This document shows, piece after piece, positions 933 to 34,178 of a stretch of 34,889 nt of DNA. The notes under the pieces were generated by a model, which saw nothing but the letters and a program-made list of their open reading frames with translations, was not told the origin of the DNA and searched no databases. Origin of the DNA: Amoebophrya sp. A120. Its lineage: Eukaryota > Protista > Dinoflagellata. Every line of letters starts with the position of its first letter. Positions within the stretch are counted from its first letter, which is position 1. The DNA is taken from positions 4,428,249 through 4,463,137 of the forward strand of contig CAJINV010000002.1 of NCBI GenBank assembly GCA_905178155.1, in the 5' to 3' direction. The translations under genes and the position numbers were made by a program.

Positions 933-3042
933 CTCGTCAATGATTTTTTCGTCACGCGCGCGTCGGCCCTGGTACAGAGCGGAAGTGGAGGGCGGACGGC
1001 CAGTGAGATAAGGGAAATGGACGAAATGCTGGGCAACATGAACTACAGCACCGAGCAAGACGATGAAGAGGCCTTCATTCAAGCCTATCCAACATGACAG
1101 ATTTTTGGGCTCGACGGAGGGAATTTTTGTTCATATGTTCATGCATGATTCTTAATGTTGATGTGCCACTGCCGGTGGGGGTACTTCTTAGTTCCGGCGA
1201 GACTTTGCAAGCAATAGCAAGCGGAGCAAATAAACCAAAATAAATGGAATTATGCACCCAAAAAATTCATCCTCCGGGGTAAGTAGTTCCTTCAAATCTC
1301 CTTCTCCATAAATCCCAAATGGCGTTGTTCCAAGAAATGGACCTCATGGAGCAGAAAACCCGAGAAACCGATACGACCTGCTCAAACGGTACAATCTCAA
1401 ACGTTACAATAGAGTATGGAAATCTGTGATGCAAACGGTGCATGACCTAGCCTCCTCCCACAGCATTGCGCATGACAAGTTCTGGAGTCCCAAACCGCAG
1501 TAGAATCTGGCGAAATTTGTATTGCAGTGTGGGTCTGTCATGAGCATGCTCATCATGCAATACAAAATCCAGATTCTTTTGTAACGCTTGAGATTGTGAC
1601 GCTTCTTGAGCGGGTCATAACCGATGTGAAGCTCGATGATGTCCCGAAGCAGGTCACGCTGCCACACCCCGGAACCTCCGGAACCATGACGGGCGACGAA
1701 AGTTCGGACCCGACGGTTCGGAGCTTTTTCTATGCACTGCAAAGGTATCGTACTAGTATGAATCGCATGACAAATGTCCTTAGAATGAGAAATGAAATTT
1801 GTAATGCGGATTCAGCATAGCAAATGAATTTGCAATGCATGACTGCGATTAATGTTACCAGTGAGATGCTTTTGCAATGCATATTCTATCCCCGAAGACA
1901 AGTCCGAATGACCGGACGGAGTCGCGGGAATCAAGATCTATGAGAGTGCACAACTCCCTCCCCTGATTTGTGTAGCTGCATCCACAGCAATACAAACACC
2001 AGCACGCGTAGTGCTTATGCATGATAAATTTGTGTTCCTAGTGCAGTACTGTTTCGGCTTCGAAATTTGTCATGCAAGCAGTGCCATGAGGCAGCGACTG
2101 GATTCGGGGTTTTGCATTACAAATAAGGGGGAGGTGGACCTGTGCACTGTCATAAGATCGGTCAAAATTGTCGAAGCGGTGATAATATCAAACGCAAAAA
2201 TGCCCGGGTCTGGAAGTAGATTGCGAGATTTGTAATGCTGGTCTGGCATGAGCATGACTCTGAACAACTCTGTGTTGCGTGGCCGGGAAGCGCTCCTCTT
2301 GGCTGTAATGCAAAAACACAGCTTCTCATGCGGAGTACGCAACTTAGAATTACGGAAAAACTTGTCATGCTTTGTAGCGCATTACAGTGTAGTGCTGAAT
2401 ATTCCTTGTCTTGCATCACAAGTTTCCAGACCCAGACACATTTGCAGTTCATAGATAAGCAGCAGTCCAAAGTCCAACATCGCAAACAGTACTGGCGTAT
2501 CCTGTGCAAAAGTATCGTACTCGTATTGGAATCATGCATTACAAATCTTTTTGTTATGTCAAATCTGCATTACAAATTTCATTTCCCATGCTGAGGAAAT
2601 TTGTAATGCGTTTATACGAGTGCGATACTTTTGCAGTGCATACGGCGGGACCATGCTGCAGGAATACCAGGCGAGATTAGCAGAAAGCCGGAAATCGAAT
2701 TTCAAAACAACAGCCGGCAGTAGCGGCGGCAGTAGAACGAACGCAACTCTGCAGAACATAACTTATCCGGAGGGCGAGAGCAAAAACACGGTGGATTTGG
2801 ATAAGGTGATAGAATCTAGTGCGGAGCAAGGCGAGGATTTTAGCAGCGAGATGTTGACAAGTACAGCACTACCAGCAGCGCCAAAGAAATCCCGGGGAAA
2901 GTTGGAAGTGCGGGTGAGCTCGTCACAGGCCGCGGGGGCTGATCGCGCAGGAGGCAGTAGAGCCGCGCCCAGGAATAGTCTCTACACGGCCACGGATCAC
3001 TTCTCGACCCTGCGACACAGTACTATCATCTACCGTTTTTGA
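933..3042 (+). CDS. Hypothetical protein, at least 7 exons, 5' end uncertain
   Basis: Removing six introners (+5 nt each) gives a continuous frame: ..MDEMLGNMNYSTEQDDEEAFIQA|QMALFQEMDLMEQKTRETDTTCSNG|LERVITDVKLDD..TVRSFF|SPKTSPNDRTESRESR|SVKIVEAVI|SSSPKSNIANSTG|GTMLQEYQARLAES..stop 3042. Possible acceptor AG at 931-932. No recognisable domain. Confidence 0.7.
1086..1310. mobile_element. Introner, degenerate TIR
   Basis: TATCC...CCATA, flanks AAGCC/AATCC; removal restores frame. Confidence 0.7.
1390..1598. mobile_element. Introner
   Basis: TIR TACAATCTCAAACGTTACAA / TTGTAACGCTTGAGATTGTG; diverged flanks AACGG/ACGCT; element+5 restores frame. Confidence 0.75.
1731..1883. mobile_element. Introner family A
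   Basis: TIR TATGCACTGCAAAGGTATC / GATGCTTTTGCAATGCATA; flanks TTTTC/TTCTA. Confidence 0.85.
1939..2154. mobile_element. Introner family B
   Basis: TIR TATGAGAGTGCACA / TGTGCACTGTCATA; TSD AGATC. Confidence 0.9.
2186..2453. mobile_element. Introner family C
   Basis: TATCAAACGCAAAAATGCCCGGGTCTGGAA / TTCCAGACCCAGACACATTTGCAGTTCATA; TSD GATAA. Confidence 0.9.
2498..2642. mobile_element. Introner family A
   Basis: TATCCTGTGCAAAAGTATCGTACTCGTAT / ATACGAGTGCGATACTTTTGCAGTGCATA; TSD TGGCG/CGGCG. Confidence 0.9.
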
Positions 3043-3970
3043 TAAAAGTGTTTTTTTTCTGTAAGAAGGTTAGTTTTGGTCGTTCTCATCTCTACAACTA
3101 CGCATGCAGTGAGTGAGTGCCTCGTCTACCTGTTAATATTACCAGCAGCGCAGTAGAAGTGGCAGTACTAAAGAAGATGCAACACAAGATGGGTTTTTTC
3201 AAAAATATCAACAGATTTCATGCAGTATGGATCGTCGCCTTCCCGCATCCGCGAGGTCATCTTCGAAACAAACGAATCAATATCGGATGTGCTTTACGGC
3301 AGTTGAAAAATCTAAAACTCAGGTCGGCCATGGTCCACCGATTTTGCAAAGGCATCTACCATGCAAGAAAGAACATGACTTGGAAGGGGAAATTTCCATG
3401 TTCTTGGAGCGTCTGTTTTCTGTATCCTAAAGTTTTTCTGAGTGACAGCGCTCTGGTGTCGCAACTCATGGCCGCTTGATTTAGATTTTATCCCTGATTT
3501 CCCGAAGCTGTGGAGCGATTCTGTCCCGCTGTTCATCCCCGACGCCACTTCCATCCTCGAGTCCGTCGAAATGGCGTGCGACAGCTCGGTCTTTGTCGGC
3601 GATTTTTTTGCCGCGGTTTTATTGAAACACTACCTGGAAATTTCGAATTTGCCCCTGGGGATGACGCAGAGGGACGCGAAAGCCATGGCTATTCGGAAGT
3701 AAAGATGTTGGATGAAGTAGTGGATTTCGTTTGCAACTTTGAAATTTCACCGTCAAGAACATGCCGCGCTGTTGTTCCAAGCGCAAGTGCTACTTAATCG
3801 CTGACGATTCATCTTCAGCATCACATGCAACCTACAGGTACCTGCACTTCAACTTCCAGAACCTGTTCAAACCGGAAATCGCCGGTGGTCCGAGAGGGCG
3901 GCAACAGCAGTCGCAGATCAGACCTTCCGGGGGCGACTACTGAGTCCTCGGGTTTTCGGTGGTCTATTAA

Positions 3971-4395
3971 GAATAAGGTAACAAGGAATCTAGACGTGAC
4001 CGGGGGGGTCACGCCCGTCCGGCCGGCCGGACGGACGGCACGTGACCGGGGGTCGGTCGTGGCGCTAGGAGGTGGTGGCCGCGGTGGACCGCGCGCCCGG
4101 GCAACTAAAAAAAAAAAAAGGTCATGAGCTCGGTCCTTCACTGAAGAACTGCCTCTCTTCGTCACGCTCCGCCCCCGGTCACGCGGCCGGGGGCTGTTAG
4201 CTAGCTCGGGCGCCCAACTAAAAAATCCGCCGTCGGTGACGCGGCCGGGGGCTTCTAGCTACCGAGGGCCAAAGTTGCTGCGGCATTCAGCGCCGAACTC
4301 GCCCCGAGGCCGGACTACCCCCGGTCACGTGCCGTCCGGCCGGACGGACGGACGTGACCCCCCCGGTCACGTCGAGTTTCCCTGTTACTATATTC
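3971..4395. mobile_element. GC-rich MITE-like element with ~80-bp terminal inverted repeats
   Basis: Left GTAACAAGGAATCTAGACGTGACCGGGGGGGTCACG..GGCACGTGACCGGGGG pairs with right CCCCCGGTCACGTGCC..GTGACCCCCCGGTCACGTCGAGTTTCCCTGTTAC. Internal GTGACC/GGTCAC motifs. No convincing ORF. Confidence 0.8.
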
Positions 4396-5132: not shown

Positions 5133-5893
5133 ATGCGGTCCGTCTTTCTCTCCCTCGTAGCGTCCTCCGCTACGACATCTTCTGCGCTTTTGATGAAGGA
5201 GAAAGCCCAAACGTCCGCCGCTTTCACTTTGAAGGAACAGGAGGCCGCGAAGCAGGGGTTCGGGTTACCGGGATGTGATTTAGACACCTATGTCCGCTAC
5301 AAGGTCACGTTTTGCTCCGGGACGAAGGGAGAGGGCGGAATCAAGCCGTTGAAGAACCCGTACTTTAAGAAGCTGGAAGCGGACGTCAGCGAGTATAAGA
5401 AGGAGGGAAACCGCGAGCTGGGCTGGAAGAAGTGGATGGGGGTAAAGCTAAAGCAGCTACTTTACTACGTGTTTTTGATGTGCATATAATGCTGGTGCAG
5501 TCGGGTATGCATGACAAAACGACATTTTCATGCGTGATCGTGCATTACAAAATCAAAAAGCGAAGTCACACCATGAAAAAATCCAGGACACCATCGTCGA
5601 AAACTCCTTCTCCGTCTGCCACAACGAAATCGGTGCTTTATCCTGTGCAAAAGCATCGTAGTCGTAGTAATTCTTGGAATCATGCATTACAAATCTCTTT
5701 CCTAAGGTGAATCCGCACTACAAACTTCATTTGTCATGCTGAGGAAATTTGTAATGCATTTATACGAGTGCGATAGTACTTTTGCCCTGCATACGCTTTC
5801 GCAAACGGCGACTCCTGCACCTACGAATTTAAAAACGAGGCGGGGCAGGTCATGCCGACGGACGCTGTCAGCTTATTCGGGGTTTCTGTGTAA
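5133..5893 (+). CDS. Small putative secreted protein, 3 exons
   Basis: Signal-peptide-like start MRSVFLSLVASSATTSSALL. GT-AG intron 5442-5586 and introner 5639-5793 give ..KKWMG|DTIVENSFSVCHNEIGA|FANGDSCTYEFKNEAGQVMPTDAVSLFGVSV*. Confidence 0.8.
5639..5793. mobile_element. Introner family A
   Basis: TATCCTGTGCAAAAGCATCG / CTTTTGCCCTGCATA; TSD TGCTT/CGCTT. Confidence 0.9.
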
Positions 5894-6081
5894 GCGGTTG
5901 AGTGGCAGAGCCAGAGACTACATCAGTTTGATGTGATTCTTCAGAAAACTATAAGCTGTTTCGGGTCAGTCGCTATGTAAGATTTTTGGTTTCGGGTTAA
6001 CAAGGTTTGAAGTTTTAGAAATCGAAATGCAAAAAAAAATGGATCTGCGAAAAATTATGATGCGCTACGAAGATGAGAAAG

Positions 6082-6225
6082 GAACTTTGATTACTTTGAT
6101 ATACTGCAATGGTTTGACGAACTGAAACTATTTTCAGAACACATTTGGTCGACACTGAAACTTTGATTACTTTGATATACTGCATTTTCTATGCTTTTTT
6201 ATGATTACTTTGATATACTGCAACT
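6082..6225. repeat. Three copies of TGATTACTTTGATATACTGCA
   Basis: Exact 21-mer at about 6088, 6164 and 6202 in intergenic DNA. Confidence 0.85.
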
Positions 6226-6697: not shown

Positions 6698-9600
6698 ATG
6701 CGGAGGGCGCGTCCGGGCGCCGTGTCGCTCGTAGCGGCCTTTACTGCTCTCACCGATGCGGCCAAATCCCCGGAAACCAACGGCATCGCCAAGGTGCTAG
6801 AAATGCTTGCTGGCATGAAGGAGAAGGCGATCAAGGAACTGCAGGATGAGAAAGTAACCTTCGCCAAATTTTCCCAGTGGTGCGACGACACGAAGATAGA
6901 ATTGGACTCGGCGATAAAGAAGGGCGGTACCATGATCGACGATTATGCATTGCAAAAGGAATATTGCACTAAGTCTAGTAGGAGGTCTCGTGGCAAGATT
7001 TCTAAAGAGGAAAAAATGCAGTTTGTGATGCTGTTTCACCTAAGGTGGGAGATATGTCATGCGCGATTGCAACTAATACGAGAACGAGTGCCGCGATACT
7101 TTTGCACAGAATAACAAATACACCGGGGCAATCGCGATGAACGAAGGAAAGAGCACGGAGCTCGCAAGCGAAATCGAGGAACTCGCTGGTAAAAGAATTA
7201 TACTCTTTCAAAGTTACATGCTTCTTTAAATTTGCATGTAGTGGCGATTTCGATGAAGTTAGAATTTGAGTTTTAGACTCATACATAATGACGATGTGTA
7301 GATGTGGACGCAATGCAAAATTTTTGCTTTTGGCCCTTCAGATACAATATAACACATTTAAAAAATACCAGCTTCCTCCGCCGCTCTGACCGAAAAGAAA
7401 AACGCGGAAGTCGCCCGTCGAGCGGAAGAAGCCTCTGCCAGCGCGAAGATAAAGGCGGAAATCCAGGAAAACATCATCGCGGTGGGCAAGGCGATTGAAG
7501 TTTTGAAGGCCGAACCAAAGTCCGTCGCGTTTACGCAAACGAAAAAGGAGGCTTTGATGCAAATGGAGCAATCTACCGCCATGTCCAGTAGGCAGAAGGA
7601 GATCGTGTCGCTGTTGGTCACAGGTACTTTTGTTTTTCGCGAAGATGAAGTCAAAAGTTTTTAATTATTTTGAATTTTGCAGCATCACATCGAGGGATAA
7701 TTGTCATTAGCTTTGCTTTGTATGGTAAGTTTTTAACTTGTTCAATGGCGCAAAGGGATTTGAACAGCGACATTTTCCTACATGATGTACTTCTAAATCA
7801 AAATTATCCAGGTGTCCCTGCGTACGAGAACCAGTCCGGCGGTGTTATCAAGATGCTCGAGGACTTGATGGACCAGTTCGTCGCGGAGAAATTTAAAGAA
7901 GAGAAGGAAGACAGCATCAAAGCCGCCGCTTCCGACAAGATCGTGACGAATTTAAACGTATCAAATGCAAATACGTCTGGGTCATCTGGAGGAGCAAAAG
8001 GTTTGTCATGCAGCTTTCGCATGAGCCAGAAAGTCTGGAATGCGGGCCGTAGCATCACAAGTTAAAGTTTTGAGAAGGTTTCCCTAACTGTTGAATCCAT
8101 ACGAGAACTCCGCATGAGAATGGCAATCAAAAGAGAGGACTTCTTCTTTTCCTGGTCACGCAATACAGATTTCTGCGTCGATCAGATTTAGCATGACAAA
8201 CTCGAACTCTTCCACACCCAGACATGTTTGCATTTGATAAAACGGCCAGATCCGCTTGGTTGAAGAAGACAAGACCCGCTCTGAGGGCGCCAAGGCAAAG
8301 CACGACGCCGCCGCGGGAAAGGCGAGCGAGGACAAAGCGGACGCTATCCTGAGTAGAAACACCCCTACACCATAGTCAAGTTGATAAATCTGCAACACAA
8401 AAAAACTCAAAGTCATGGGAGTATATGCATGACAGGTTCCTGTCTGCAGCGTAGTGCTGGTTAGCGAGGACAGCCGCATCACAAAGATGGCCCCTTATGC
8501 TGTTTACAGCACCACAAATCCCAGAACACGACTACAATCGCCACGCATGATGCGGATGCGCATTACAAATGATTCTGTGGATGCAAATCTGCAAGACAAC
8601 TAGGGGGTGGGGATGTTTTTACTCAGGATAGACGCGGAAGAGACGCTCGCGAAGAATGTGAAAAACGAAAAGCAGATGTCCGCGACGTGTGCGAAGAAGC
8701 ACGCCGACATGGACGTCAGGACCCAAATATGAAGTGCAAAAGTATCGTACTCGTATAAGTGCATGACAAATTCCCTCAGCGTGAGAATTAAGATTTGTAA
8801 TGCGTATTTACTTTGAGGAAAAACTTGTAACTATGCAAGACTTGCATTTATACGAATGCGATACTTTTGCACAGGATACCAGACCAGAACGGCGGAGATC
8901 GAAGCGATTGGCAAGGCGGCGGAGACTATGATACACAAAAGTTCGTCACAAGGACAATAATCACTCATGTTGCGCATTTTTGCAATACAAACACAAACGT
9001 GTCTATCATGTGCAATAAAAATTCACCTTCACCACATTGTTCGAGTTTCGTACGCGAGTTGCCGTGTGTTTGTTCGCCAAAAGATGAAAAAGCTGTGTTG
9101 GTAGAAAAAATTATCATTCAAAATCTGCACCAAAGCAGTAACTGCGGCGAACTTTTTTCCCTTCCATAGAGACAATCGAAGGCGTTGCCGGGTTGAAGAC
9201 CGCTGCGGGTTTGGTGCAGCAGGCGACCACCTCGTTCCTGCAGCTGTCCGCCAACAAAGTGTTCTCCAAACAGCACTCTTCCGACGTCGACGTCGCGTCT
9301 CTGCTCCGCACCGCGGGCCAGAAGCAACACAGCAAGCGGCTGCAGCTCCTCGCTTTGAAGATCGAGTCCCTTTCGTCCGTCGGCGGGCCGTTTGATAAGA
9401 TCAAAAAGATGATCGAAGACATGATCATGAAGCTAAAGAAAGAATCCGCGGAGGAAGCCGGGAAGAACGCCCAGTGCGTCCAGTTATGCAGTGAAAAAGT
9501 AGGGTAGAAGTGGTACTGGTGGAACTGTTGTCGCATGACAGATCTCCTTTCAGCTAACTTGAATGTGCGTGACAAGTTAAAGTTTTCGTTTTTCTTCCTA

Positions 9601-11979
9601 AAAATGTTGAAATTTGTATTGCAATTCCCACTAGGACTAGTACCACAATGCAGGTCTTTTTTGAATCCATAAGACTGGATGAGCGACAACAAGCAAGACA
9701 TGGAAGATTCCCAGGAGCGGCTCGACGCACTGAAGATCGAGATCGAGAAGCAAACCTCCACCGTTGAGTCTTCCACTGCGAAGTTAGCGGAGCTCGCCGA
9801 CGAGGCTGCGAAGGCGCAATCCACCCTCGCAAAGGCGTATCACGAGAAAAAAGTGTTACAGTTACCCAGGTGTTGGAGTTTCTGCATCACAGATTTTCTC
9901 TTGGTGGCAGAGAAAACGTGTAATGCGAAGATCATAAGCGAAAGCAGGAACAAAACGAGGCTCCCAAGCATTTCCTGCATGAGAAAGGTTGTCTGTGTTG
10001 CCGGTCTTGCATAGACTATGTGTGTAACTGTAACGCTTTTTTCTTGCGATAAGGCGGGCAAGACGCGGGCGGAGGAAAAAAAGGAAAACGCAGCGACGGT
10101 TGCGGACGCCAAGGTCGGGAGCGAGGCCGTGGACAAGGCCATTCAGGTATAATTGACGGAATTTTCATCTGTTTTCAGCATGACAGAACAGGTTTCCTTC
10201 GCTATTTGCGCATTAGGAACAGGTGTAGGTGGACTTTTGAACCTTTATCAATCTCGATTGCCAAATCGTGATCGCTGCTTCACAAAGAAAAATAATGTTG
10301 TTTGGTGTCCTGCAAGAGAAAGTGAAATTTAGTACTAGTCCCTGAATTTAAATTGCAATGATAAAAAACTATCAGATCCTGAACGATTTCTATGGTGACG
10401 CTGCGACGAAGACCTCCCTGGTTCAAGTGAAGCAGTATCCTGTGCAAAAGTATCGTACTAGTATGAATCGCAATACAAATTAGCTCAGCATTACAAACTT
10501 CACTTTGTAATGCTGATTCACCTTTATTTTTGTATTGCATAACTGCAATTAGTACGAGTGCGATACTTTTGCACTGCATAAGCAGCCAGAAGTGGACATG
10601 TCCGACATGCCCGACACCTTCGATTCCCCCTACACGGGCCAACAGTCCATGGGCGGTGGCGTCGTCGGTATCATGGAAGTGATTCTCTCGGACTTTTTAT
10701 TCTGTTTAAAAACGTCCCCACCCGGCCCAGAGTTCTTGTCATCGACAAATCTGCATGACAAGAAGTAGTCTCTCGTGCGAGGGAGACCGATGAGAGACAT
10801 TTTCTAGTCGTGGTTTGGAATAATTTGTGATGCTAGAAACAGCACGATGTGCTAGATTTGCGATGCTCCTGAACTAGCTTTAAACGCAATTACATATATG
10901 AGGACAAACTTGTCATGCGAAACAAACTAAAGCTGGTGGATTTGTCTAGCAGATTTCCCATCTTGGCTCTGATATGGGGACGTTTTTATGCAGGATACCT
11001 TCTGAAGCTCCTCCAAGAAACCGAAGCTGCGGAGTCCGCCGCACAGAAGGAGTACGACGAGTTGGTCCAAAATGAAGCCGAGGCCAAAGCCGCCCGGGAC
11101 GCGCAAATGTCTCACTATGCAATGCAAATATGTCATCTGGTTCCTCTGAAAGAACGCTGCAACTTGTCAAGTTTCTCATGCGGGAAAGGCATGATGGAGA
11201 TCTTACGGAATCTAGCATGCTAGGTCCTGCATCTTCCCACCCCTCATGATGTGTCAAGGCCATGGAAAACCTGCTTGACAAGCCTTCGGCTCATCATCTG
11301 GCAGATGACCCAGACATATTTGCAATGCATACCCACTTGGAGAAGACCAAAGCGAAAGCAAAGGCGGACTTGACCCAGGCTATGGGAGATTTGGAAACGG
11401 AAAAGTCCACCATGTCGTCGATCGTCGAGGCCAAGCGCGTGATCGAACAGGATAAGGGGTGTGTCATGGGCGCGGGGAATATCCACAGTAAATTTCCTGT
11501 ACACGTACAAATGCGGTCCCTGCATGACAAAACTTGGCTTCGATCCTAGTTTAGCATGACAAGTTTTATGCTCCAAATTGGCGAAATTTGTGATGCATCT
11601 TGTACATGTACGGGAAACTTGTATTGCATAGGCAAGACACCGGATGAGCTGTTCAAGGAAAGGTCGGACGCGAGAAAGGCGGAGATGGAGTCTTTTATGG
11701 CGTTCTCAGCTGTTACATCCTCAGCTGTTACATGGATTTGTGATGCAAGAACTGCAACAGTGAACAAATAGGGGACCGACCTTGCGCTTCTCGCATGACA
11801 GATTTGGCAAAGATTCTCAGCCTGTTGGGCTCGTCGGGAATTTGTCATGCGAAGTAGCTTCATCGTGCCGATTCTGATTGCAATTTTGCATGACACATCA
11901 TGTAACAGTTAAGAATGTAACATTTGAGAACGCCATATCTTTAGGGCAGGCGTTGGAGGTGTTGAAGGTGCAAACGTAG
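6698..11979 (+). CDS. Dinoflagellate-type secreted coiled-coil protein with duplicated halves (possibly trichocyst-matrix-like); 16 exons
   Basis: Signal peptide. Motifs IAKVLEML..FSQWC, YENQSGGVIKMLEDL, SFLQ, GPFDKIKKMIEDMIMKL..EA, PYTGQQSMGGGVVGIMEVILSDF and RKAEMESLGQALEVL*, which I recognise from an abundant dinoflagellate family. 12 introners plus GT-AG introns 7189-7371, 7624-7811 and 10147-10375; frame continuous to TAG 11977-11979. Function is inference. Confidence 0.85.
6944..7113. mobile_element. Introner family A
   Basis: TATGCATTGCAAAAG / CTTTTGCACAGAATA; flanks ACGAT/ACAAA. Confidence 0.85.
7959..8239. mobile_element. Introner family C
   Basis: TATCAAATGCAAATACGTCTGGG / CCCAGACATGTTTGCATTTGATA; TSD AAACG. 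Confidence 0.92.
8345..8630. mobile_element. Introner family D
   Basis: TATCCTGAGTAGAAACACCCC / GGGGATGTTTTTACTCAGGATA; TSD GACGC. Confidence 0.92.
8728..8878. mobile_element. Introner family A
   Basis: TATGAAGTGCAAAAGTATCG / CGATACTTTTGCACAGGATA; TSD CCAAA/CCAGA. Confidence 0.9.
8927..9168. mobile_element. Introner, degenerate TIR
   Basis: TATG...CATA; perfect TSD GAGAC; removal restores frame. Confidence 0.8.
9485..9671. mobile_element. Introner, degenerate
   Basis: TATGCAGTGAAAAAG / CTTTTTTGAATCCATA; flanks CCAGT/AGACT; element+5 gives ..QCVQ|WMSDNK. Confidence 0.8.
9838..10051. mobile_element. Introner family F
   Basis: TATCACGAGAAAAAAGTGTTACAGTTAC / GTAACTGTAACGCTTTTTTCTTGCGATA; TSD AGGCG. 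Confidence 0.92.
10436..10580. mobile_element. Introner family A
   Basis: TATCCTGTGCAAAAGTATCG / CGATACTTTTGCACTGCATA; TSD AGCAG. Confidence 0.92.
10698..10997. mobile_element. Introner family D
   Basis: TATTCTGTTTAAAAACGTCCCCA / TGGGGACGTTTTTATGCAGGATA; flanks CTTTT/CCTTC. Confidence 0.9.
11116..11331. mobile_element. Introner family C-related
   Basis: TATGCAATGCAAATATGTC / GACATATTTGCAATGCATA; TSD CTCAC/CCCAC. Confidence 0.9.
11480..11630. mobile_element. Introner
   Basis: TATCCACAGTAAATTTCCTGTACACGTACAA / TTGTACATGTACGGGAAACTTGTATTGCATA; TSD GGGAA/GGCAA. Confidence 0.88.
11696..11937. mobile_element. Introner
   Basis: TATGGCGTTCTCAGCTGTTACAT / ATGTAACATTTGAGAACGCCATA; TSD TCTTT. Confidence 0.92.
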
Positions 11980-12566
11980 AGGAGTGTTTGTTGTCGGGAT
12001 ATTAATTTACGTATGCTATTGCTAGTGCCTTTTCGTACTAGGAATTGAAGTTTCACTTTCATCTCAAGGAATTTTACAATTTTAGATTTACTGAAGATGA
12101 GTGTTTCACGCTTTTTTTTCTCTCTCCCCAAAACCCGAGCTGCAACTAGCAGGACGTCCATTCTCGTTTCTATAGTCTTAATGGTACATCAAATGGCAGT
12201 TATTTTTTTGGTACATCTTTTTGGCAAAGCAAGTCCTAGTCTTAATGGTAAATCAATGGTACAGAAGATTCTCGAGTAGAATGGTAAATGGTAAACAAGT
12301 CGAATGGTAAAAGGAGATCATGGATGGACTGTGTTGTGGCTCGACAGTTGTGAGTGAAAGAAGATAAGAGTGTGTGGGGAAACAGAAAAAAAAACTTGGA
12401 AGTACAACAGCTTGTATGATTACGATATTCACCTTCACGACAAACACAAAAGTACGCACACGGTGCGTTTTGATTTTATGTATGTCAGGCCAGGCTGATC
12501 ATGCTCCATCAAAAAAACCGTACTGCTGAGAGGTTGTGTTCTTCCAGGCACATGATCCACGCGCGC

Positions 12567-14414: not shown

Positions 14415-16229
14415 GATTTCAGTTGTGGCGCGAACAGGAGAGAGGTTAAAGTTGCGTCTTTAGGTCTGTAAGACGTGATGACGATTGTGATTGTTTGCTT
14501 TCTTGGAAGTGCAAGTGGGAGATGTGGGTCCACGACCAGGGTCTGCTTTTTTCACTGAATGTGATGGACGTGCAATAATTAACACCGTCTCGACGTCCAA
14601 AACCTATAGCTTCACGTTTTGAAAACCATGTCGACTACATCGTCCGCCGTCGAGATTACTCTGCAGAGTTTTGGTCTCCCCAGTATGATTGAGGCTTTAC
14701 ACCAAATGCACCGGGTGGCTATACAAAACCTTAGCCATTACATAAAGAACCTTTCAGCAATTTGTTGTGGTTGTTGTATATGGAATTAAGTATAGTTTTT
14801 TTTATCGAATTGCGTAAGCAAAAGTAGATGATCTACTGTAGATCACACATGTTCAAGCTGCACGACACCGGAAGCAAATTGATTATAGCTGTGAAGCCGA
14901 CAAGTCCGACACTCGTAAAAGGATACCTGACTAGGACTACCACGCGCAACCGCGATCAGAGAAAGAGATGCATGTGTCCCGCCGGCCACGCGCGAATGCC
15001 CCCTCCCCCGTCTCCCTGCAACGCCTCCTCGGAGAGGCCGTCGGTTGCTACGGGTGCGGCACGAAAAACCCTCACGGCTTCCAGCTGCACAGCTACGTCA
15101 AGCGGTTTTCGCATGACAAATCTGCAACGAAAAAAACCCACGTTGCGGTGGAGAGTCTCTGGCACCCGAAAGAACATTATGACAGTACACAACTCCCCCT
15201 CCCCTTCATTTGTATTGCATGAGCGGCAATGCAAGCAACAGCAAGAGCGCCCGTTTTATTGCAATACGAATTTACGCTCCTGGAGTGTAGTACGATTTGG
15301 GCTTTCGGAATTTGTCATGCAAACGGTGCCACAGGGCAGCGACTGGACTCGGGATTTTGCATGACAAACAAGGCCCGAGCACGGGGACAGAGTCCCCGTG
15401 CGGCGACCTTCCGGCATTTGTCTGCGCGGTGGCACTGGGCAGGCAGGTGGGTCGCCTGCAGCTAGGTATCTCGGTGCGCCTTGCATTCACTGACCCGCGA
15501 CGGGCCTGCGGACGCCGCCCCCTGTCTTGCGCGCACTAGATTCATTAGCCTGCCGCGCGCAAAGATAAAAATAAGAAACGAAGAAACTGGCGCAACCCCA
15601 TGAGAGCCATTTCCAGTCGTGTTTTGGACTTTGTGATGCTGTAAACAGGATGAGTAGATTGACTTGTGTTGCGGCTGTACTTGCTATAAACTGCACTACA
15701 CTACAGAGAGGAACTTGTCATGCTTGATTCCCAAAACTTCTCGATTTGTGTTGCGAGATCCCCATCTTGACTATGGGGTGGGGACGTTTTTACGCAGGAT
15801 ACCATGTTCTGGATCTCCACCCCGTGAAGCTCGGGCGGGGCGGAAAACACGGGGAAGGGGACGACGAGGAGCGTGGGTATTACACCGATGAAGACAGCGA
15901 CTACGAGAACGATAGCAACGTGTTCAACGATAGTGAAGATGAGGGCCGGTGGGAGTTTTTATGAAAGCCTCAGGTTGGAAATCCTCAAAGTGAAAATGAT
16001 TTGTAATGCAAATAAACGACTCCAGTTGAGGCACCATTTCTAGCCGGCGCAAGACAAATTTAGTGGGCACTCGAAACGTGTCTGTCATGCTAGCTAGGCA
16101 AAGGGGTGCCTTTCTCTCGTGCTAATCAGTAGCCCAGTTCTGACCCGTACAAGCACAATAGTCGGCCTCCATTGCGTTCTCTGCAATACCAATACACTCT
16201 TTTTGGTCTCGCATTTCATGCATCACAAA
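14415..16229 (+). pseudogene. Collapsed duplicate: MSTTS-gene leader and start + thioesterase 5' part + ASCC1 fragment + three partial introners
   Basis: 14415-14642 matches 16230-16462. 14640-15177 matches 22848-23358. 15590-15959 matches 30248-30511 joined to 30782-30892. Partial introners at 15178 (B), 15590-15801 (D) and 15960 (E). Confidence 0.85.
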
Positions 16230-16449
16230 CAGTTGTGGCGCGAACAGGAGAGAGGTTAAAGTTGCGTCTTTAGGTCTGTGAGACGTGATGATGATTGTGA
16301 TTCTTTGCTTCTTCCTGCTTGGACGAAGTGGGACACGTGGCCGCACAACCAGGAGGGTCTGCTTCTTTCATTGAATGTGATGGATGTGCAATAACCATCG
16401 TCTCCACATCAACTTCAACCAACTTCATAGTTTCACGTTTAAAAAAACC

Positions 16450-17346: not shown

Positions 17347-18550
17347 AAAGATGAAGATCTCTGCGTCCACCGTTTTATCTTTAGTATTGTTCTTTCATGC
17401 TGCACTTGCTCTTATACCACGCGCGAAGCGGTGTGTCGCAGGGAAAGTTATTGCAAAATCTGATAGCTGACGTTTGTTCTCGCGCGACAGCACATGGGGA
17501 GGCGGATGCGGTACGCTGTTGCAAAAATGTAGCTTTGCCCGTAGAGTCCATGATGTTGGATATTCAAGGCAGATGATTGATCATTCTCATTGCGCTTTTC
17601 AATACTAAAGAAGATCTGCATCGTGCGTATCAATCTTTGTTTCGTGTCCTCGCATCTGTAGTCGCCACAGAGTCAAGCATTTTTGCAATGCATACCGGAT
17701 CGAGCGAGGACATCGATCCAGCGGGTGGCGAGGGGCCAAGTATGGGAATGTCAGGCCTGAAATTGCAATTGGTAAAGTTCAAACCGAAACGATTTGCAAT
17801 GCATAAAATCGACTCCAGTTCGATCCACAGTTTTTACCCGGCCCGTAGCATCAAATTTTCCTAGAATCTCGAGCAAATCTGTCATGCTGTGCAGCAGGGG
17901 AGATGAACCAGAAGAGCTCGTTCCTTCTGTCATGCTAGTCATTTGCCCAGCTCTACTTGGCTTTGACCTTTAGCAGGACGATAATCATCTGCCTGCCTTG
18001 CGTCCCCTGCAATGGAGTCGCTTTCTGTGTCGCATTATACACATCATAGTTTACGTATTTCAACCTCGTCAATCTGTGTCCTGACGTTTCCATACCAACA
18101 TGGGGCGCAGGAATAGTCCAGCAGAAGCAAACGGCGGTGGAGATCGATGGATCGGCTAGTGTGTCGACGACTGGTATGGGACGAAAAAATTTACAGCGTA
18201 CAGCATTGATATTCATATTCTTTTTCTTCCGTTCCTCATCACATTGTAATCTATCTGTGTGAAGGCTGTAGTTTTGCATGTATCATCCTCATGACCACTG
18301 AAGCCGAGCTACGTATACGCACGTTAGAAGAGTGCTTCAAGTTCAGTTGTGGCGCGAACAGGAGAGAGGTTAAAGTTGCGTCTTTAGGTCTGTGAGACGT
18401 GATGATGATTGTGATTCTTTGCTTCTTCCTGCTTGGACGAAGTGGGACACGTGGCTCCACGACCAGGAGGGTCTGCTTCTTTCACTCAATGTGATGGATG
18501 TGCAATTTTCAACACTTCAACCAACTTCATAGTTTCACGTTTAAAAGAAC

Positions 18551-19429: not shown

Positions 19430-19809
19430 TTTCTCGGTTTTTTTTGGCTCAATACACGACGTTTCACACAAGCAACCTGTTCCTGTGCATGAAAAATGAC
19501 AAACACAAGAACTACTTTTCTGAAACTGAAACAATGTCTTGTTTGCGTCACGTAGATGAAAATGTAGCTCTAAGAGCTAGGTGCTGCATGTTGATCAACA
19601 TCACATCATGATAAAACAGACGTTCGTTTTCGCGCGCAAACGCATGTTGCGGCGGGTGTATGCTGTGCAAAAGCGTTGCTTGATATTTTTTTTTAAATGT
19701 GCGACGTGCCATGGTAGTGGTTAAAAAGATTCGTGTCGCAATATGAAGCTTTTATTTGTCCCCTCGTAAAAATACTAGTATCTACTATTTTGTATAGCTG
19801 CATGACATC

Positions 19810-22308
19810 ATGGGCAGAAAGTCAGAGTCAGACACTTTTGCACCGCATACCGGACAGGATGAAATCAAGCCAGCGGAAGTCAAAGAAGCAGCGGGTGCAG
19901 CCACTATGAGAGCGCACAACTCCCCCTCCACGTCATAATTTGGAAGGGGGCATGAACAGCTTTCCTTCGTCAGCAAGAGTGCAGGTTTGGCATGACAAAT
20001 TTATTTATTGCGCAGGATTGTAGTGCTGTTTGGGCCTAGTGCCAGCACTTTTTGTAATGCAAACATTTCCTCTTAGAGGCGAGGCGTGAATATCAGTTTC
20101 GTTTTGCATGACAAATGAGGGGTTTTGATATGGTGCAGTCTGGTACGCATGACAAATGAGGGATGGTGGAGGAGGAGTTGTGCACTCTGATAGCTACGGA
20201 GAGCAGCGGTGCAGCAGCTGTCCAGCAGGAACCAACGGTGGTGGACATCGAGGGGTCCGGGACCGTTTCGAGTGATCGTAGGGGATCGGAAATTAGAAGA
20301 ACGCAGCATTGATGTTGTATTTCTCTTCAACTTGCATGCAGCAACGTCAAGACGAACGTATATTTGTTGAAAATGAAGAAAATGAAGAACTCGAACCCAA
20401 ACCTCCGCACGCCCCCCTAGTGCAGGATAAATGATGATGATGATGAACATGAACTTGTCATGCAACACCTACAGCTGCGTCTCTCTGCGCCAGTGGTCGC
20501 AGCCCCACCAATTCAGTCACAGTATACAACATTTTTATAAGTTTGAGCAGCTGTGGCTTAGGAAATGTTGAAGATTGTGAACAATGCCACTTCGTTCCTC
20601 TAGCATAAGCAGCGGTGCCAGCACCTGGGAAACGATTTCGAACTCGATTTACTCGGCGTTTCTGGGAACGAGCGGTATTGAGCTGTTCTTTTCACACGGT
20701 GCGTACACGTAGGACCTCGTCCGCATGACATTCTAGTGCGCTTCTACCCTATGATGTCGTTCCTTCTGGAATTTCGTGTTCTCTAAAATAATCAAACTGA
20801 AGGTGATCCTGCACAAAAAATCCCAGCAGATGTGATTGCTGACGGACAGAAACAAGAGGTGGGAGCAAAGCCGTCTTCGGCCATCGAAATGCAAACCGCG
20901 GGAGGAAAGCAAAGTGGAGACCAGAAAATGGAACGTAGTGGGAGTGATACAAGGACAACAGTTGTAGGATTGGAAGGCAGCACGGGGACTGCAACGGGTA
21001 TCAAATTGTTGACATTATTGAAATTCATTCCTCCAGACGCAAACTTGTGCGTGCTTATCTCAGGAGCTTCTGTATCTGTTTATGTGTGATTGCGAAATGT
21101 AGACTCTGACGCCAACGTTTGTTGCGAGACCGAATTAGAATTTGCAACTCGAGTATGAATGAACTCTGTTGTGAGACGGAATTTCATATTATAAAATTTA
21201 CGGAACTTGTTTGATTGAAACATCAGATACTCTTCCTTCATCAGCTGTTCCGTCGGCCTCTACAAATGATGTCGTCGCCGAAACTGCTATGGAAAAGCAA
21301 GATGCAAAAGCTGCACCTGCGTCGGTTATCGAAGTGAAGCCACCAGCTGCGGCTTCGACTGGTCAGGAAAGTGGGTTGGCGAAGAGCGGTACTGAACTGT
21401 TGAAGTTGATGTTTCTGTAACCATGCGTGTGATTTACCTGTGTTGGCACCTTGATACTTCTTACAAATTGCTATTGTATTTGCACGGATTCACTTGATGC
21501 GCGTGTCTTCACCACTTTCACAGAAACGCCGACGAGTGTCGCCTCGGATTCTGCAGACATCGCGTCAGCGAATGTTGAGCAGCAGCTGGATGAGCAGCGC
21601 AAACTATCATCGGCAACCGAAACAAAAACAGATGAATCGGGTTTCTCCACATCCTCTGCTGTGGAAAAACACACGACAGAAGCACAACTCGAGAAGCAGA
21701 ACGGCCCTAAAGCAGCAGGAGAAAGCGAGAAGAGCCAGATTGTAGCTGGAGGTCCCTCATCTGTCGTGTCTACTGCCGCAAGAACCGCTGCTGCGGAGCC
21801 GGCGAAGGTAGAGCAGGTTGAGCATGATCATGAACGACAAAGCAACGCGCAAACGAAGTTGCTGTCGTCCTCTACAAGCGGCGTTTCTTCTTCTGGTGCA
21901 GCTCCTTCGTCAGCTACCATGTCGATTTCGGGTTCTCCCGAATCGCAGGTGAAAACCCAAGAAACGAAAGCGGGGCATGCGCAGTCTTTGGAAATTGCCG
22001 GAAGCAGCCCGACTGACAGTGATGAACTGGATTCAACTACAACCAGACGAGCGGGTATTAAGGCGAAACAAGAACAATCCGGAAGCGGCACCGGAGATGA
22101 ACATGAAGGCGATGAATTAAAGGACTCAGTAGAGATGAAGGACGAAAATGCGCCAGCCGATGGCCGAACTGCGGGTGAAGTGGTGCTGGAGATGAAGAAA
22201 GGCAACAAAATAGTAGGAGACAGATGCAGCCAAGGTAGCGAATGTCTTTCGGGGAAGTGTAGCACATTTAAAGGAAAAAAGCAGTGCCGACCATCTAGTG
22301 GGGGTTGA
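19810..22308 (+). CDS. S/T/A/E-rich low-complexity protein with Cys-rich C-terminus; 5' structure uncertain
   Basis: Exons 20830-20997, 21227-21388 and 21524-22308 join through phase-1 GT-AG introns and end GDRCSQGSECLSGKCSTFKGKKQCRPSSGG*. A similar upstream module (19810-~20271, split by an introner) is probably part of the same gene. Confidence 0.6.
19905..20192. mobile_element. Introner family B
   Basis: TATGAGAGCGCACAACTCC / GGAGTTGTGCACTCTGATA; TSD GCCAC/GCTAC. Confidence 0.9.
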
Positions 22309-27700: not shown

Positions 27701-28974
27701 ATGTCGGAGTTACAGGGGAACATGGATCAACCTGGCATGAACACGCTGGATGAGCCGGTGATAGACACGATAAAAAGAGATGTAAACGCCATTGCCGAAA
27801 AGCTGCACTACGTGCTGTTACCGAAGGCACGGGTGGACAAGGTACAAGTTGCTTTTTTGTCTGATACGATCGTGATGTGATAATTGTGCATCACAGAGCA
27901 GATGGCGTGGTGTAGTATTAGCCACCCCGGCACATATGATTTCAATATTTCCCGCACGACCTCTTGTCAGGGCGCCGGCCTCCGAAAGTGGGATCTCTGG
28001 GGTCCCTTGTTTCTCTGCCTCGCCCTCTCCTATCAACTGTAAAAAAAGTGTCTGGGTCTGGAAGAATCCTACTTTTCATGCTGATTTTGGATTCTAAAAA
28101 AATAAAAATCTGTATTGCGTGAGCAGCAAAGAGAGTCCAAGTTTTGCTACACGGAAAGAGCATTTGTCATGCGGTATGGGCATCAGGAAGTCCTCACAAA
28201 ATCTGCGATGCTAGGGCATGCATCACAGACGTCAGGAGTCATGCAAAATGTGCATGACAAACCTGGCAATCTTCCAGACCCAGACACTTTTACATTTGAT
28301 ATCTCCACCGTCCTAGCCATGCAGGCACACAAGGAGCAGGCTGGGAGAGCCTTCGCCCTCGTGTTTATACTCGTGTGGTATAGAAGTACAAAAATGTTGT
28401 TGATACAATTTGTTCGCAAAGGCTTCTTGACAGATGTGTCGTATAATCGGATCTCATGTTACGCATGACAAGGCTGTTTGTTTTGTTGCATTAAAACAGA
28501 AGAAAAATCAGGGCCGGCTCCGGTGTCGTCACACTGAACACAGTGTTACTGAAGGGAAAAATCTCCTTTTTCCAGAGCGTGTGTGTCCTCGGGTACTGCA
28601 TCTTTCCGCTCGTCCTCGCAGCGGTCGCCTCGGCAATAGTATCGTGGAAGATACTGAAGGTAATGTTGTCGCTCAAGAGCATTTTCATGGAAATGGAATG
28701 CTATTCCTGCATGACAGATCCCGTCGCGGGATTATGTAAATGCATGACAAGTTCTTGTACAGTGAAAATCATGATTAGCATATGTATCGAATAAACTTTG
28801 TACCAAAAAAAACCACCCGCTCAGGTTATCTTCGTCGTCATTGGCTTCATATGGGCAACCGGCGCCTCTGTTGGGTTTATGAGCGACATTGTGCCAGAGG
28901 ACCGGAAAGCGCTAGGAGTGTACCCGGTATGGCTCTTCTACGTGGCAATAGCCTGGATGATTCTGCTCGCATAG
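27701..28974 (+). CDS. YIPF6: Yip1-domain Golgi membrane protein (YIPF6/Yip4-like), 5 exons
   Basis: NTLDEPVIDTIKRD..KLHYVLLP, LRKWDLWGPLFLCLAL, ISFFQSVCVLGYCIFPL, RKALGVYPVWLFY. GT-AG introns 27842-27970, 28378-28511 and 28660-28824, plus introner 28031-28301. Confidence 0.92.
28031..28301. mobile_element. Introner family C
   Basis: TATCAACTGTAAAAAAAGTGTCTGGGTCTGGAAG / CTTCCAGACCCAGACACTTTTACATTTGATA; TSD TCTCC. Confidence 0.93.
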
Positions 28975-29884: not shown

Positions 29885-32800
29885 ATGCTCGCCGACAGCA
29901 GCTTCGATGACCCCGAGTTTACCACGGTCACTATCAAAGAGCAAATAAAGTGTTAATGCTAACGGAATAAAAATTTGTGATGCAGGAACGCATGCATCAC
30001 AAAAGGGGCCCACATTTTTCTTGCATTTGTATTGCATAGCATGCATTCTAAGCAAAATTTGTCATGCTTTTCTGCAATCTGTGTAAACCCGTAAGTACTA
30101 AACGTTAGCACGTCATTTTTGTTTGATAGTCACCCTCAGTGGTCAGCGGTACCGAAAAGTTCTTCTCCCCGACCATGTATCCTGAGGAAAAACGTCCCCA
30201 CCCCATACTTGTCATGCAGCTTTGCAGTTACAGGAAGATTTGTAATGCGCAACCCCATGAGAGCCATTTCCAATCGTGTTTTGGACTTTGTGATGCTGTA
30301 AACAGGATGAGTAGATGGACTTGTGTTGTGGCTGTTGTACTTGCTATAAACTGCACTACACTACAGAGAGGAATTTGTCATGCTTGATTCTCAAAGCTTC
30401 TCGATTTGTGTTGCGAGATCCCCATCTTGACTATGGGGTGGGGACGTTTTTACGCAGGATACCATGTTCTGGATCTCCACCCCGTGAAGCTCGGGCGGGG
30501 CGGGAAACACGTATCAAATGCAAAAATGTCTGGGTCTGGAAGATTGGAACTTGTGATGCTAACTTTGGACTCTAAAAAGATCTGTATTCCATGACCAGCA
30601 AGAGGAGTCTAGTTTGTGCTACGCGGGGAGGGCGTTTGTCATGCGGAGTAGGCATCAGGAAGCCCTCTAAAAATCTGCGATGCTAGGGCGTGCATTACAG
30701 ACGTCCTGGGTCAACATGCAAAACATGCATGACAAGTTTCAGAATCTTCCAGACCCAGACATTTTTGCATTTGATAACACGGGGAAGAAGACGACGAGGA
30801 GCGTGGGCATTATTACACCGATGAAGACAGCGACTACGAGAACGACAGCAACGTCTTCAACGATAGCGAGGATGAGGGTCGGTGGGAGTTTTTGGAGGTT
30901 GAGGACAAGTACGAGTATCGGCTCCCCGTGCCGCAAGTCTACTTCAAATTCCTCATCGGGGCGAATCACAAGACCTTGAAGAAAATGGAGCAAGACACGG
31001 GGTGCGAGATCCTGTGCAAGGAGGGACAGGCGCCTGTTGGGAAAATGACAAACGCGAAAACGGGGGACGAAATCGACGGGCACGTGGCCATTCGGGCCAG
31101 GGACAAAATGTCGCTGAAAGCGGGGAAAGGGGCCGTTGAGTACTTACTCTTCTCTGTGCATTGAAAAGCCTTAACCTACGTTCTTTACGCAATGCATTTG
31201 TAAAATGCAGCTATGCTTACAATGCTTGTTATGCTAGTCCTTCTGATGCCAAGTAGAGTGCTGTAACAGATAGAAGCGTGCTTCGTGTGTGTTGTGTTTT
31301 TCCATGAAAATCATCTCTAAAAACAATACTAGGTACACAATGGAGCTGGCAGAACAAAAAATCCCGATGACGCACTTTTTCAACGTGAGGATACCCGCAA
31401 ATTCCATCGTGCCCACCAAATTCCAGCAGTGGTTGGACACAAAGCAGTGCGTGGAGTTGAATCCCCACTACTTCCAGAAGCCCGAGCGGTTACACTTCAC
31501 GCTGTTGCCGTTGAAGCTTCACACGAAGGAGAAATATGAGAGTGCACAACTACTGCCCCTCCCCCTCATTTGTATAGCATGAACGGCAATACAAGCGTCA
31601 GCAAGAGTGCTGGCTTCGCGTGATAGATTTGCCCAGCAGGGGTGTAGTAATGTTTGGTACCACTCCGGAGTTTGTCATGCAAACAGTGCCAACAGGCACA
31701 GCCTGGATTTGGTATTTTGCATGACATCAAATGAGGGGGAGCAGGGGGGGTTGTGCACTGTCATAAGAAAATCGAGAAAGTGAAACAGATTATCCGGGAA
31801 CTGAACGCCAGTGACTGGTTTCCGGACGCGGTTATGACAGCCTCAGAATGGAAATCCTCAAAGTGGAAATGATTTGTAATGCAAAAAAACGACTCCAGTT
31901 GAAGCGCCATTTCTAATCGGCGCATGACAAATTTCCCGGGCACTCAAAACATGTGTGTCATGCTAGTTAGGGCAAAGGTGTGCTGCCCTTCTCTCGTGCT
32001 AATCAGCAGCCCACTTCCTCGGAACCCGTAGAAGCACAATAGTCGGCCTCCATTGCGTCCGCTGCAATACAGTCTTTTTGGTGTCGCATTTTATGCATCA
32101 CAAATTATTTCCACTTTGAGAATTTCCATTCTGAGGCTTTCATAGCGGTGGAGCGGTTTCGGTTAGATTTATCAAAGAAAAAAACATTGTAGGTGTAACT
32201 TTTTTGGAGGAACAGCATTACAAATCTGTCTGGCATGACAGCAAAAACCTGTCATGCGCAGACAGTATGTGAAAACGCCCTTTACTGGACCCTACAAGGC
32301 ATGCCAAGCATGACAGACGCGATCATCTTGCATGTTGCGCATCACAAATTTACACTAACAACGTTTTTTTCTTGGATAAGATTTGAAAGGTCTTCATTAC
32401 ATGAACGACGAACCAGGGAAGGTGAATGTGTTTATCCTGTGCAAAAGTATCGTACTCGTACAAATGCTAATGCAAGTCTTGCGTTACAGATCTTGTTTCC
32501 AAGGCAAATCTGCATTACAAATTTTATTTCTCATGCTGAGGAAATTTGTAATGCATTTATACGAGTACGATACTTTTGCAGTTCATAGTGTTGTACACAG
32601 AACCAAGCACAGGAGCTGGAGGAGCTTCATCTGCTTCTGCAACGACAAGCAGTTCTGCATCAAGCTCTCATTCTCAACGACCGCCCAACCCTTTAAACCA
32701 CCTCGTGGACATCCTGTTTCAAATTCTGATCAAAAACGACATTGTCACGAAAGAGTACCTGATGCAGCAACGGTTATTGGATTCAACCGGCAAGAACGCG

Positions 32801-33220
32801 GATATAAAACCGCACTGCACGCTTTTGAACACGAAATTCTACGTGCAGTACATGGAGAGAACGGGAAAATGGTCCAGCGCCAAGGCGTTCGAGGAGGAAA
32901 ACGAAAACCCAAGGTTTATCAACGCGAAACCGCTGCTGCAAGCCAACGTGGGGTACGATTTTGGGTCTTTTGAAGCAGTTATCCTTTGCAAACGTATCGC
33001 ATTCGTAGTTGTAATCGCAGTCATGCATTACAAATTTCGTTTCCAAGGCAAATCAGCATGACAAATTTTATTTGTAATGCTGAGCGAATTTGTATTGCAA
33101 TAACTACTACGTACGATACTTTTGCAATTCATAGTGGTAGAGGTGGAGTTTTCCGATATGCTGGAGATTGACAGGAACACCCAGTACTTCAAAAAGCTCG
33201 CTGGGCTGAAACTAGGATAA
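29885..33220 (+). CDS. ASCC1: Activating signal cointegrator 1 complex subunit 1-like (KH domain + 2H-phosphoesterase/AKAP7-like domain), 10 exons
   Basis: N-terminal TLSGQRYRK; KH domain VPQVYFKFLIGANHKTLKKMEQDTGCEI; PMTHFFNV; two HxT motifs (RLHFTL, KPHCTL); KGLHYMNDEPGKVNVLY; YDFG. Eight introners plus GT-AG intron 31140-31332; TAA at 33218-33220. Confidence 0.9.
29932..30128. mobile_element. Introner, family F-like
   Basis: TATCAAA...TTTGATA; TSD GTCAC. Confidence 0.88.
30178..30461. mobile_element. Introner family D
   Basis: TATCCTGAGGAAAAACGTCCCCACCCCATA / TATGGGGTGGGGACGTTTTTACGCAGGATA; TSD CCATG. Confidence 0.93.
30512..30776. mobile_element. Introner family C (young; absent from the paralogous copy)
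   Basis: Perfect TIR of over 30 bp, TATCAAATGCAAAAATGTCTGGGTCTGGAAGATT; TSD ACACG. Confidence 0.95.
31535..31765. mobile_element. Introner family B
   Basis: TATGAGAGTGCACAAC / GTTGTGCACTGTCATA; TSD AGAAA. Confidence 0.93.
31833..32144. mobile_element. Introner family E
   Basis: TATGACAGCCTCAGAATGGAAATCCTCAAAGTGGAAAT / ATTTCCACTTTGAGAATTTCCATTCTGAGGCTTTCATA; TSD GCGGT. Confidence 0.93.
32170..32378. mobile_element. Introner family F
   Basis: TATCAAAGAAAAAAACATTGT / ACAACGTTTTTTTCTTGGATA; TSD AGATT. Confidence 0.9.
32433..32587. mobile_element. Introner family A
   Basis: TATCCTGTGCAAAAGTATCGTACTCGTA / TACGAGTACGATACTTTTGCAGTTCATA; TSD GTGTT. Confidence 0.93.
32980..33133. mobile_element. 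Introner family A
   Basis: TATCCTTTGCAAACGTATCG / CGATACTTTTGCAATTCATA; flanks GCAGT/GTGGT. Confidence 0.9.
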
Positions 33221-34170: not shown

Positions 34171-34178
34171 AAACATCA

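Follow-up and report, generated by a model that had tools for sequence, protein, structure and literature searches.

Inverted-repeat introns of Amoebophrya sp. A120 fit a single splice register, and those of a close relative are conserved one-sidedly at their ends

A 34,889-nucleotide (nt) stretch of the Amoebophrya sp. A120 genome (assembly GCA_905178155.1, contig CAJINV010000002.1, positions 4,428,249 to 4,463,137 of the forward strand; hereafter the window) carries 37 TAT...ATA elements with defined ends, spread across nine genes and all on the + strand. Automatic element detectors were noisy, recovering 28 to 29 of the 37 with 5 to 9 extras and making 8 to 11 calls per Markov-simulated window (5 and 14 in another run); hence, the elements counted here were accepted on inspection, open frames, and RNA evidence, two of them (17207 and 20279) being defined post hoc from RNA joints. 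The elements start with TAT (34/37), TAC (2/37), or TAG (1/37) and end with ATA (36/37) or ACA (1/37). Their 5-nt flanks are identical in 21 cases, agree at four positions in 7, and at three or fewer in 9. At a strict BLAST cut-off, the elements formed six multi-member clusters (9, 3, 3, 2, 2, and 2 members) and 16 singletons. A first-pass annotation had described 33 such elements in eight genes, nearly all beginning TAT and ending ATA and drawn from at least six families of terminal inverted repeats (TIRs), an observation that was borne out; its flank counts were 20 identical, 7 with one mismatch, and 6 more diverged.

Short, non-coding, and repeated, with TIRs and a fixed-length duplication, the elements have the traits of miniature inverted-repeat transposable elements (MITEs). 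They also carry the TAT inverted repeat, the A-run from about position 11, and the short direct repeat of A120 introners. They belong to the introner elements that Farhat et al. (2021) described, so that both the class and the genome were known before. The annotation had rightly called the phenomenon known, and undersold Farhat et al., who had the same organism, the TAT start, and a 5-base-pair (bp) direct repeat. In that paper (PMC7789003), A120 introners have inverted repeats made of TAT, seven variable nt, and at least three A, and direct repeats of 3 to 5 nt, with one 5-bp example; non-canonical introns exceed 60% of A120 introns, and their removal is treated as an open question.

At the left of the window, an old element shared with a close relative starts with TAT at 1086 and ends near 1290 (approximate, the 3' end being degenerate), and the gene starting at 1017, which has an open frame, holds five elements (1372-1619, 1731-1883, 1939-2154, 2186-2453, and 2498-2642). 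The gene at 5133 contains element 5639..5793 (joint 5634>5795; intron 5638-5797 in the fixed register set out below). A coiled-coil-like gene (6698..11980; 678-amino-acid model with an open frame) is interrupted by 12 elements (6944-7113, 7959-8239, 8345-8630, 8728-8878, 8927-9168, 9485-9671, 9838-10051, 10436-10580, 10698-10997, 11116-11331, 11480-11630, and 11696-11937) and by three GT-AG introns with transcript joints (7189-7371, 7624-7811, and 10147-10375). Further along lies an old TIR intron with GT..TG ends, 17206..17469 (TAT at 17207, ATA at 17465), which has lost its duplication and whose joint, 17205>17470, has zero slide. It is followed by elements 17512-17694 (TAC start) and 17741-18094, with joints 17509>17698 and 17735>18095; by a GT..GG intron, 19658..19853, around element 19659-19849 (joint 19657>19854, zero slide, in runs X1 and X4); by element 19905-20192, with a transcript joint; and by a decayed GT..CA intron, 20278-20611, which has a TAG start, ATA at 20607, no predicted hairpin, and a transcript joint. 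Elements 23780-23947, 24777-25032, 25281-25464, and 25703-25866 (ACA end) have transcript joints and open frames.

Two genes with domain matches stand at the right of the window. In the Yip1-domain gene (27701..28974), element 28031-28301 and GT-AG introns 27842-27970, 28378-28511, and 28660-28824 interrupt an open frame of 189 amino acids; an exon matches Yip1 at the family level, YIPF6 being the subfamily label of the first-pass annotation. The gene at 29885..33218 has eight elements (29932-30128, 30178-30461, 30512-30776, 31535-31765, 31833-32144, 32170-32378, 32433-32587, and 32980-33133) and one GT-AG intron (31140-31332). Once these nine are removed, the model equals the public A120 protein P0001 at 431/431 residues, and an exon search returned one protein match, 100% identical and labelled Amoebophrya sp. 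A120. The public protein probably stems from the same genome project, so that it confirms identity and gene structure and is not independent evidence. Its domains are KH_1 and AKAP7_NLS, which we take to be the ASCC1 architecture. The annotation had held that removing each element plus 5 nt restores the frame in every case. Together with removal of the canonical introns, this leaves an open frame in eight gene models, two of which begin at an internal start, with the gene at 16450 covered no further than its last element; at the 5133 gene the support is the RNA joint only, and the 1086 element lies outside the frame check.

Transcript joints were taken from runs X1 to X4, which are assembled contigs from one sample whose RNA status is a guess, with X6 as a DNA-like run. 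Element junctions were scored among the joints listed (15 of 599 and 15 of 16 for two regions); the five elements of the gene at 1017, elements 11696 and 28031, and those of the ASCC1-like gene fall outside these joints. All 22 listed element junctions skip exactly the element plus 5 nt, as the precise, fixed-offset removal proposed in the annotation would have it. A single X1 contig skips 11 of the 12 elements and all three GT-AG introns of the gene at 6698, another skips element 5639, and the listed joints of the second region comprise ten element and five GT-AG junctions. Raw-read runs X9 and X10 mapped one read and none, so only the dominant spliced form is visible. Excision from DNA, or a set of unexpressed pseudogenes, would be an alternative to removal from RNA: the RNA status of X1 to X4 is guessed, and ciliates have TA-bounded eliminated sequences. 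However, GT-AG introns are missing from the same contigs as the elements, X6 has a depth of 0 at each of the 15 joints listed for the first region, and one X6 contig spans 5747-8203 straight through element 6944 and intron 7189. The frames are open, and the exon sequence flanking the elements is conserved in the relative, at 3% divergence; we regard this alternative as barely credible.

Where the two flank copies differ, a joint reveals k, the number of upstream duplicate bases kept in the mRNA. In the first region, k is confined to 3-4 at element 6944, 4-5 at 8728 and 9485, and 2-4 at 10698, the sole common value being 4. This value was set down and then examined in a second region picked for its diverged flanks, where joints 19657>19854 and 17205>17470 cannot slide and give exactly k=4, and the ranges at 17512 (3-4), 17741 (0-4), and 20279 (4-5) all include it. 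All 22 joints are compatible with k=4, compared with 17 for k=3 and 16 for k=5. With each intron drawing one of six registers at random, the simulated chance of one common register was 5.5e-5 for all 22, 0.001 without the two post hoc elements, and 0.004 when one paralogous copy was also left out. As k=4 is the only register fitting every joint, the intron reads N + TAT...ATA + NNNN.

A cut that slides within the duplication, or varies by family, would make this common register a small-sample accident. Such variability has published support: a Fig. 3 legend calls splice sites variable relative to the hairpin (PMC7789003), and Gozashti et al. (2025) list mixed sites and 2- to 5-nt duplications for A120 families (PMC12130899). 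In contrast, 22/22 joints fit one register at a simulated chance of at most 0.004, and mixed published sites may be what an aligner is expected to return at sliding junctions; we consider a sliding or family-specific cut very improbable.

In the fixed register, the 5' end is NTA in 37/37 elements, and the canonical introns of the window start with GTA in 12/12 cases (8 joint-confirmed, 4 from open frames). T at +2 and A at +3, as in U2-type introns, are present in all 37 window elements and in all 245 oriented elements of the relative. The first base and the last two bases of element introns are free. GT starts occur in 13/37, an AG end in 1/37, and both in 0/37, which departs from the GT/GC...AG ends of U2-type introns. 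The annotation had seen no GT-AG register among its 20 elements with perfect duplications; here none of the 37 shows GT-AG in any register compatible with the fixed-register product, and the GC-AG register that it noted at element 9838 is present. In six introns, splicing ignores AGs whose last base lies 2, 3, or 6 nt beyond ATA. An apparent drift of old elements toward G at +1 (10/22 confirmed introns have G, several of them in two paralogous genes) was not repeated in the relative and was rejected. Canonical introns 7189-7371, 10147-10375, and 31140-31332 end in ATA-CCAG or ATA-CTAG or have a 4-nt duplication (TCAG), like old elements in the same register. The canonical 3' ends are A-rich and have no pyrimidine tract.

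For comparison, a 20-nt TIR pattern was sought in two collections. In metagenome_contigs it returned at least 151 loci (493 kb), all on contigs with one accession prefix, and in viral_contigs there was no match. Two of the relative's loci have orthologous counterparts in the window: L004 corresponds to the gene at 6698, and L003 lacks three of the five elements that interrupt the gene starting at 1017. By eye, the two orthologous genes share 10 elements, with another 7 confined to the window and 7 to the relative. Empty sites at the 14 strain-specific insertions carry a single 5-mer. Within the window, a partial copy of the 5' region of the ASCC1-like gene (15560..16230), which has its own truncated element from about 15960, likewise shows an empty site for element 30512 with a single ACACG. 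Among the relative's 361 exact TAT..ATA elements (median length 223 nt for its elements), 249 have a perfect 5-nt duplication, one a 4-nt duplication, and none a 6- to 9-nt duplication. The empty sites and the excess of 5-nt duplications establish that the elements insert with a 5-bp duplication, and the MITE-like origin with a strict 5-bp rule put forward in the annotation holds. That two genes, over about 7 kb, differ between strains by 14 insertions shows the invasion to be recent.

The mobilizing enzyme may be a DDE transposase or an integrase that makes cuts staggered by 5 bp. No cognate transposase was found among six long TIR pairs in the 493 kb of relative loci, 12 of 44 long open reading frames (ORFs) being scanned and no genome-wide search made. 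A 2.46-kb TAT...ATA element at L059:476-2934, with a perfect 5-bp duplication and a 415-residue ORF, resembles a MITE into which other DNA has inserted, and the ORF matches nothing in Pfam or Atlas. Other long versions occur at L006:505-1608, L023:5520-6334, and L063:1561-2313. Elements of different families occupy the same GATAA site in the window (2186-2453) and in L003 (about 6010-6180), through parallel insertion or replacement. A relative-only element at about 518-667 of L004 has flanks TGCTC and CGCCC, and the window has TGCTC at 6745-6752; both differences fall at third codon positions and could reflect precise intron loss in the window lineage.

The relative also allowed the two ends of the element to be compared. 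Across 245 oriented elements, variants at +2, +3, and +4 number 0, 0, and 12, and at the mirror 3' positions -5, -6, and -7 they number 5, 4, and 2, A-7 being the best-kept 3' base. Fisher's test puts this asymmetry at p=7e-5, at 7e-4 when the set is restricted to near-perfect duplications, and at 2e-4 once L003 and L004 are set aside; it was reached by 0 of 100000 random orientations. Positions 11-14 are A in 196 to 225 of the 245. A need for pairing, or a transposase constraint, would affect both ends alike; hence the asymmetry points to a sequence read on the transcript. The annotation had proposed a removal route independent of boundary sequence. Given an NTA start like the canonical GTA, a T+2 and A+3 that never vary at the 5' end of the transcript and do vary at the other, and a fixed register, removal is not boundary-independent.

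The annotation had also supposed that the TIR hairpin guides removal. Predicted terminal pairing probability is at most 0.1 in 10 of 22 spliced introns, folding being uncertain over 150 to 350 nt. Between strains, TIR positions 4-20 differ at 19/306 sites and the interior at 99/1293 (p=0.47), with exon flanks of shared elements differing at 30/954 (3%). Intron 20278-20611 is cut at ATA+4 even though no stem is predicted for it. A requirement for a long hairpin is thus not evident, as judged from a small sample and uncertain predictions, and guidance by the hairpin fits poorly with these figures and with end variation that is not mirror-symmetric.

These results bear on a separate, non-spliceosomal machine of the kind proposed for Euglena, which would cut 1 nt 5' and 4 nt 3' of the TIR stem with some preference for stem-base sequence. 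Free first and last intron bases suit such a machine, as does the predicted pairing of the ends in about half of the spliced introns. U1 small nuclear RNA (snRNA) was not detected in Amoebophrya (PMC7789003), and Euglena offers a precedent in a fixed-offset code, N3CDG..CH'GN5-6|R, with circular excision products. Against it, variation at the paired positions is one-sided, 10/22 introns lack predicted terminal pairing, and TIRs decay like the interior. The invariant bases are moreover those common to the canonical GTA, and two paralogues carry the same intron with different ends, GT..TG and GT-AG: 17206-17469 aligns with the paralogue's GT-AG intron 19370-19619 at a weak score that nonetheless exceeds all 100 shuffles. 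We hold a separate machine to be a serious but clearly less probable alternative.

We favor, at a probability of about 0.6, a relaxed U2-type spliceosome that reads U+2 and A+3 and, needing no AG, sets the 3' cut by its distance from a candidate branch A at -7. The non-autonomous inverted-repeat elements insert with a 5-bp duplication and leave the transcript in one register, N+TAT...ATA+NNNN; the spliceosome would recognize U+2/A+3 at the 5' end and measure the 3' cut from A-7. Since five duplicated bases, one before the element and four after it, are removed together with it, the mRNA regains its exact pre-insertion sequence. Palindromic ends supply NTA...ATANNNN in both orientations, and a long hairpin may help young copies while remaining dispensable. 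Cutting by the spliceosome is suggested, at the level of sequence, by invariant bases that are those of the canonical donor, by the GT..TG/GT-AG paralogue pair, and by the T+2 sites of Farhat et al. In PMC7789003, T is at +2 in each of the nine sites that Table S4 gives as predominant in A120, every predominant A25 site begins with TT, and most spliceosomal proteins and U2, U4, U5, and U6 were found in A120. In Stentor, the branch A is reported to lie at a near-fixed place (PMC9505925).

Several observations weigh against a relaxed spliceosome. The junctions come from contigs only, from one sample of guessed RNA status, X9 and X10 having contributed almost no reads. Orientation in the relative relied on a codon model that was right for 34/37 window elements and retained 245 of 389 candidates, and the divergence test covers nine shared elements only. 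Some end pairing is predicted in 12/22 spliced introns. The candidate branch A-7 is itself variable in 2/245 relative elements and is found in only 6/12 canonical introns. In the relative there is no pull toward G+1 (4/18 mismatched flanks) or toward a terminal AG (16/171 perfect flanks). All 16 combinations of first and last base occur, and we know of no normal spliceosome that would tolerate them all. NUA and A-7 hold less information than it takes to specify an intron, and some further determinant must supply the rest. That U1 was not found among the Amoebophrya snRNAs of PMC7789003 counts on the same side.

A further variant keeps the spliceosome and seats the branch point in internal GCAT[G/T/C]ACA repeats (GCATGACA), ATA only marking the 3' cut. 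The motif resembles the UNAC branch core. The window has 116 copies where 4.3 would be expected, 89 of them lying inside elements with both strands alike; the motif is common to unrelated TIR families and present in 8/13 canonical window introns, where 11 copies are sense and none antisense. In contrast, the 245 relative elements show no strand bias (318 vs 315), and 52 of them have no sense copy. The relative's predicted canonical introns gave 16 vs 21, a noisy set (the canonical-intron finder was exact for 6/20 window predictions), and copies outside elements 7 vs 5. Copies lie 30-300 nt from the 3' end, and a 31- to 33-bp spacing peak (87 spacings in the relative; 2536/2567, 28709/28742, and 25579/25611 in the window) fits a DNA-binding repeat. 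An internal branch point therefore seems improbable. The idea that GCATNACA acts in splicing from the sense strand, which rested on the 11:0 count in the window's canonical introns, likewise found no repeat in the relative and was dropped as unsupported. With this spacing and no strand bias in the relative, the motif is likely a transposase-binding repeat, in which case many GT-AG introns would be decayed introners.

The elements themselves are already known; the register and the end asymmetry are what is added. Farhat et al. described introners in the same organism with TAT inverted repeats that are strain-specific, repeated, and MITE-like, and with no A120 transposase found; in that paper (PMC7789003) the splice position is variable or unknown and the repeat length variable, whereas the elements studied here have a strict 5-bp duplication, a fixed register, and one-sided conserved bases. 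Its figures S19-S25 could bear on the register question. Gozashti et al. (2025; PMC12130899) report 58 A120 families, and among the 21 listed in the portion available most are 'TIR DNA, unknown' with mainly non-canonical sites. Their automatic calls disagree by family (co-option of the 5' side, the 3' side, or both; 2- to 5-nt duplications), and no common register appears among those 21, unlike the fixed register here. An earlier study (Gozashti et al., 2022; PMC9860276) only cites Amoebophrya in the text accessible to us. Fritillaria borealis has comparable transposon introns with TIRs, duplications, and non-GT-AG ends, and their removal by a changed U2 spliceosome (PMC11282704; 10.1101/2025.08.15.670264) is a precedent for the reading favored here; it prefers AG-AC and AG-AT ends and has a duplicated U2AF, whereas here +1, -2, and -1 are free and +2/+3 fixed. 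Euglenid nonconventional introns share the lack of GT-AG, a near-end stem (predicted here in 12 of 22 spliced introns), fixed offsets, and sliding junctions that mask the code (PMC12501133). Their offsets are 3 and 5-6 nt around CDG/CHG, unlike GU, compared with 1 and 4 nt and a GUA-like 5' end here; with TAT at +2 to +4 and a 3' offset of 4 nt, the window elements do not follow the Euglenid code. No fixed register or end asymmetry was found in the literature on Amoebophrya introns, splicing, and introners, a search whose scope excluded subscription papers and theses.

The fixed register replaces the absence of a splice signature with named positions, namely U+2, A+3, a candidate branch A-7, and a free +1 and 3' end. 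If the favored reading is right, a spliceosome works without the G+1/G-1 pair and without AG, the spread of transposons through coding DNA at no protein cost is explained, and thousands of intron annotations would be corrected. The broader proposition, that the Amoebophrya spliceosome dropped G+1 and the 3' AG for most introns and follows the code N|UA...A(-7)UANNNN|, provided in both orientations by one transposon end, we would put at even odds. Under such a minimal code, tens of thousands of 'signal-free' introns would follow one rule, and any TAT-ended, 5-bp-duplicating insertion would be an immediate scar-free intron.

A scan of the window against Rfam gave no match at the gathering score. 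An upstream block is repeated at 12570, 14420, 16225, and 18345, ahead of several paralogous starts, and its copy at 16225 truncates the element at 15960. Partial duplicates derive from the start of the gene at 23169 (14840-15170) and from the ASCC1-like gene (15560-15960), and 33430-34410 duplicates the upstream region and 3' part of the Yip1-domain gene. A GC-rich palindrome of 437 bp at 3965-4401, with no 5-bp duplication, is an element of another kind. Positions 1-700 consist of degenerate short repeats (GGGTACAAAATT-like) and are possibly subtelomeric.

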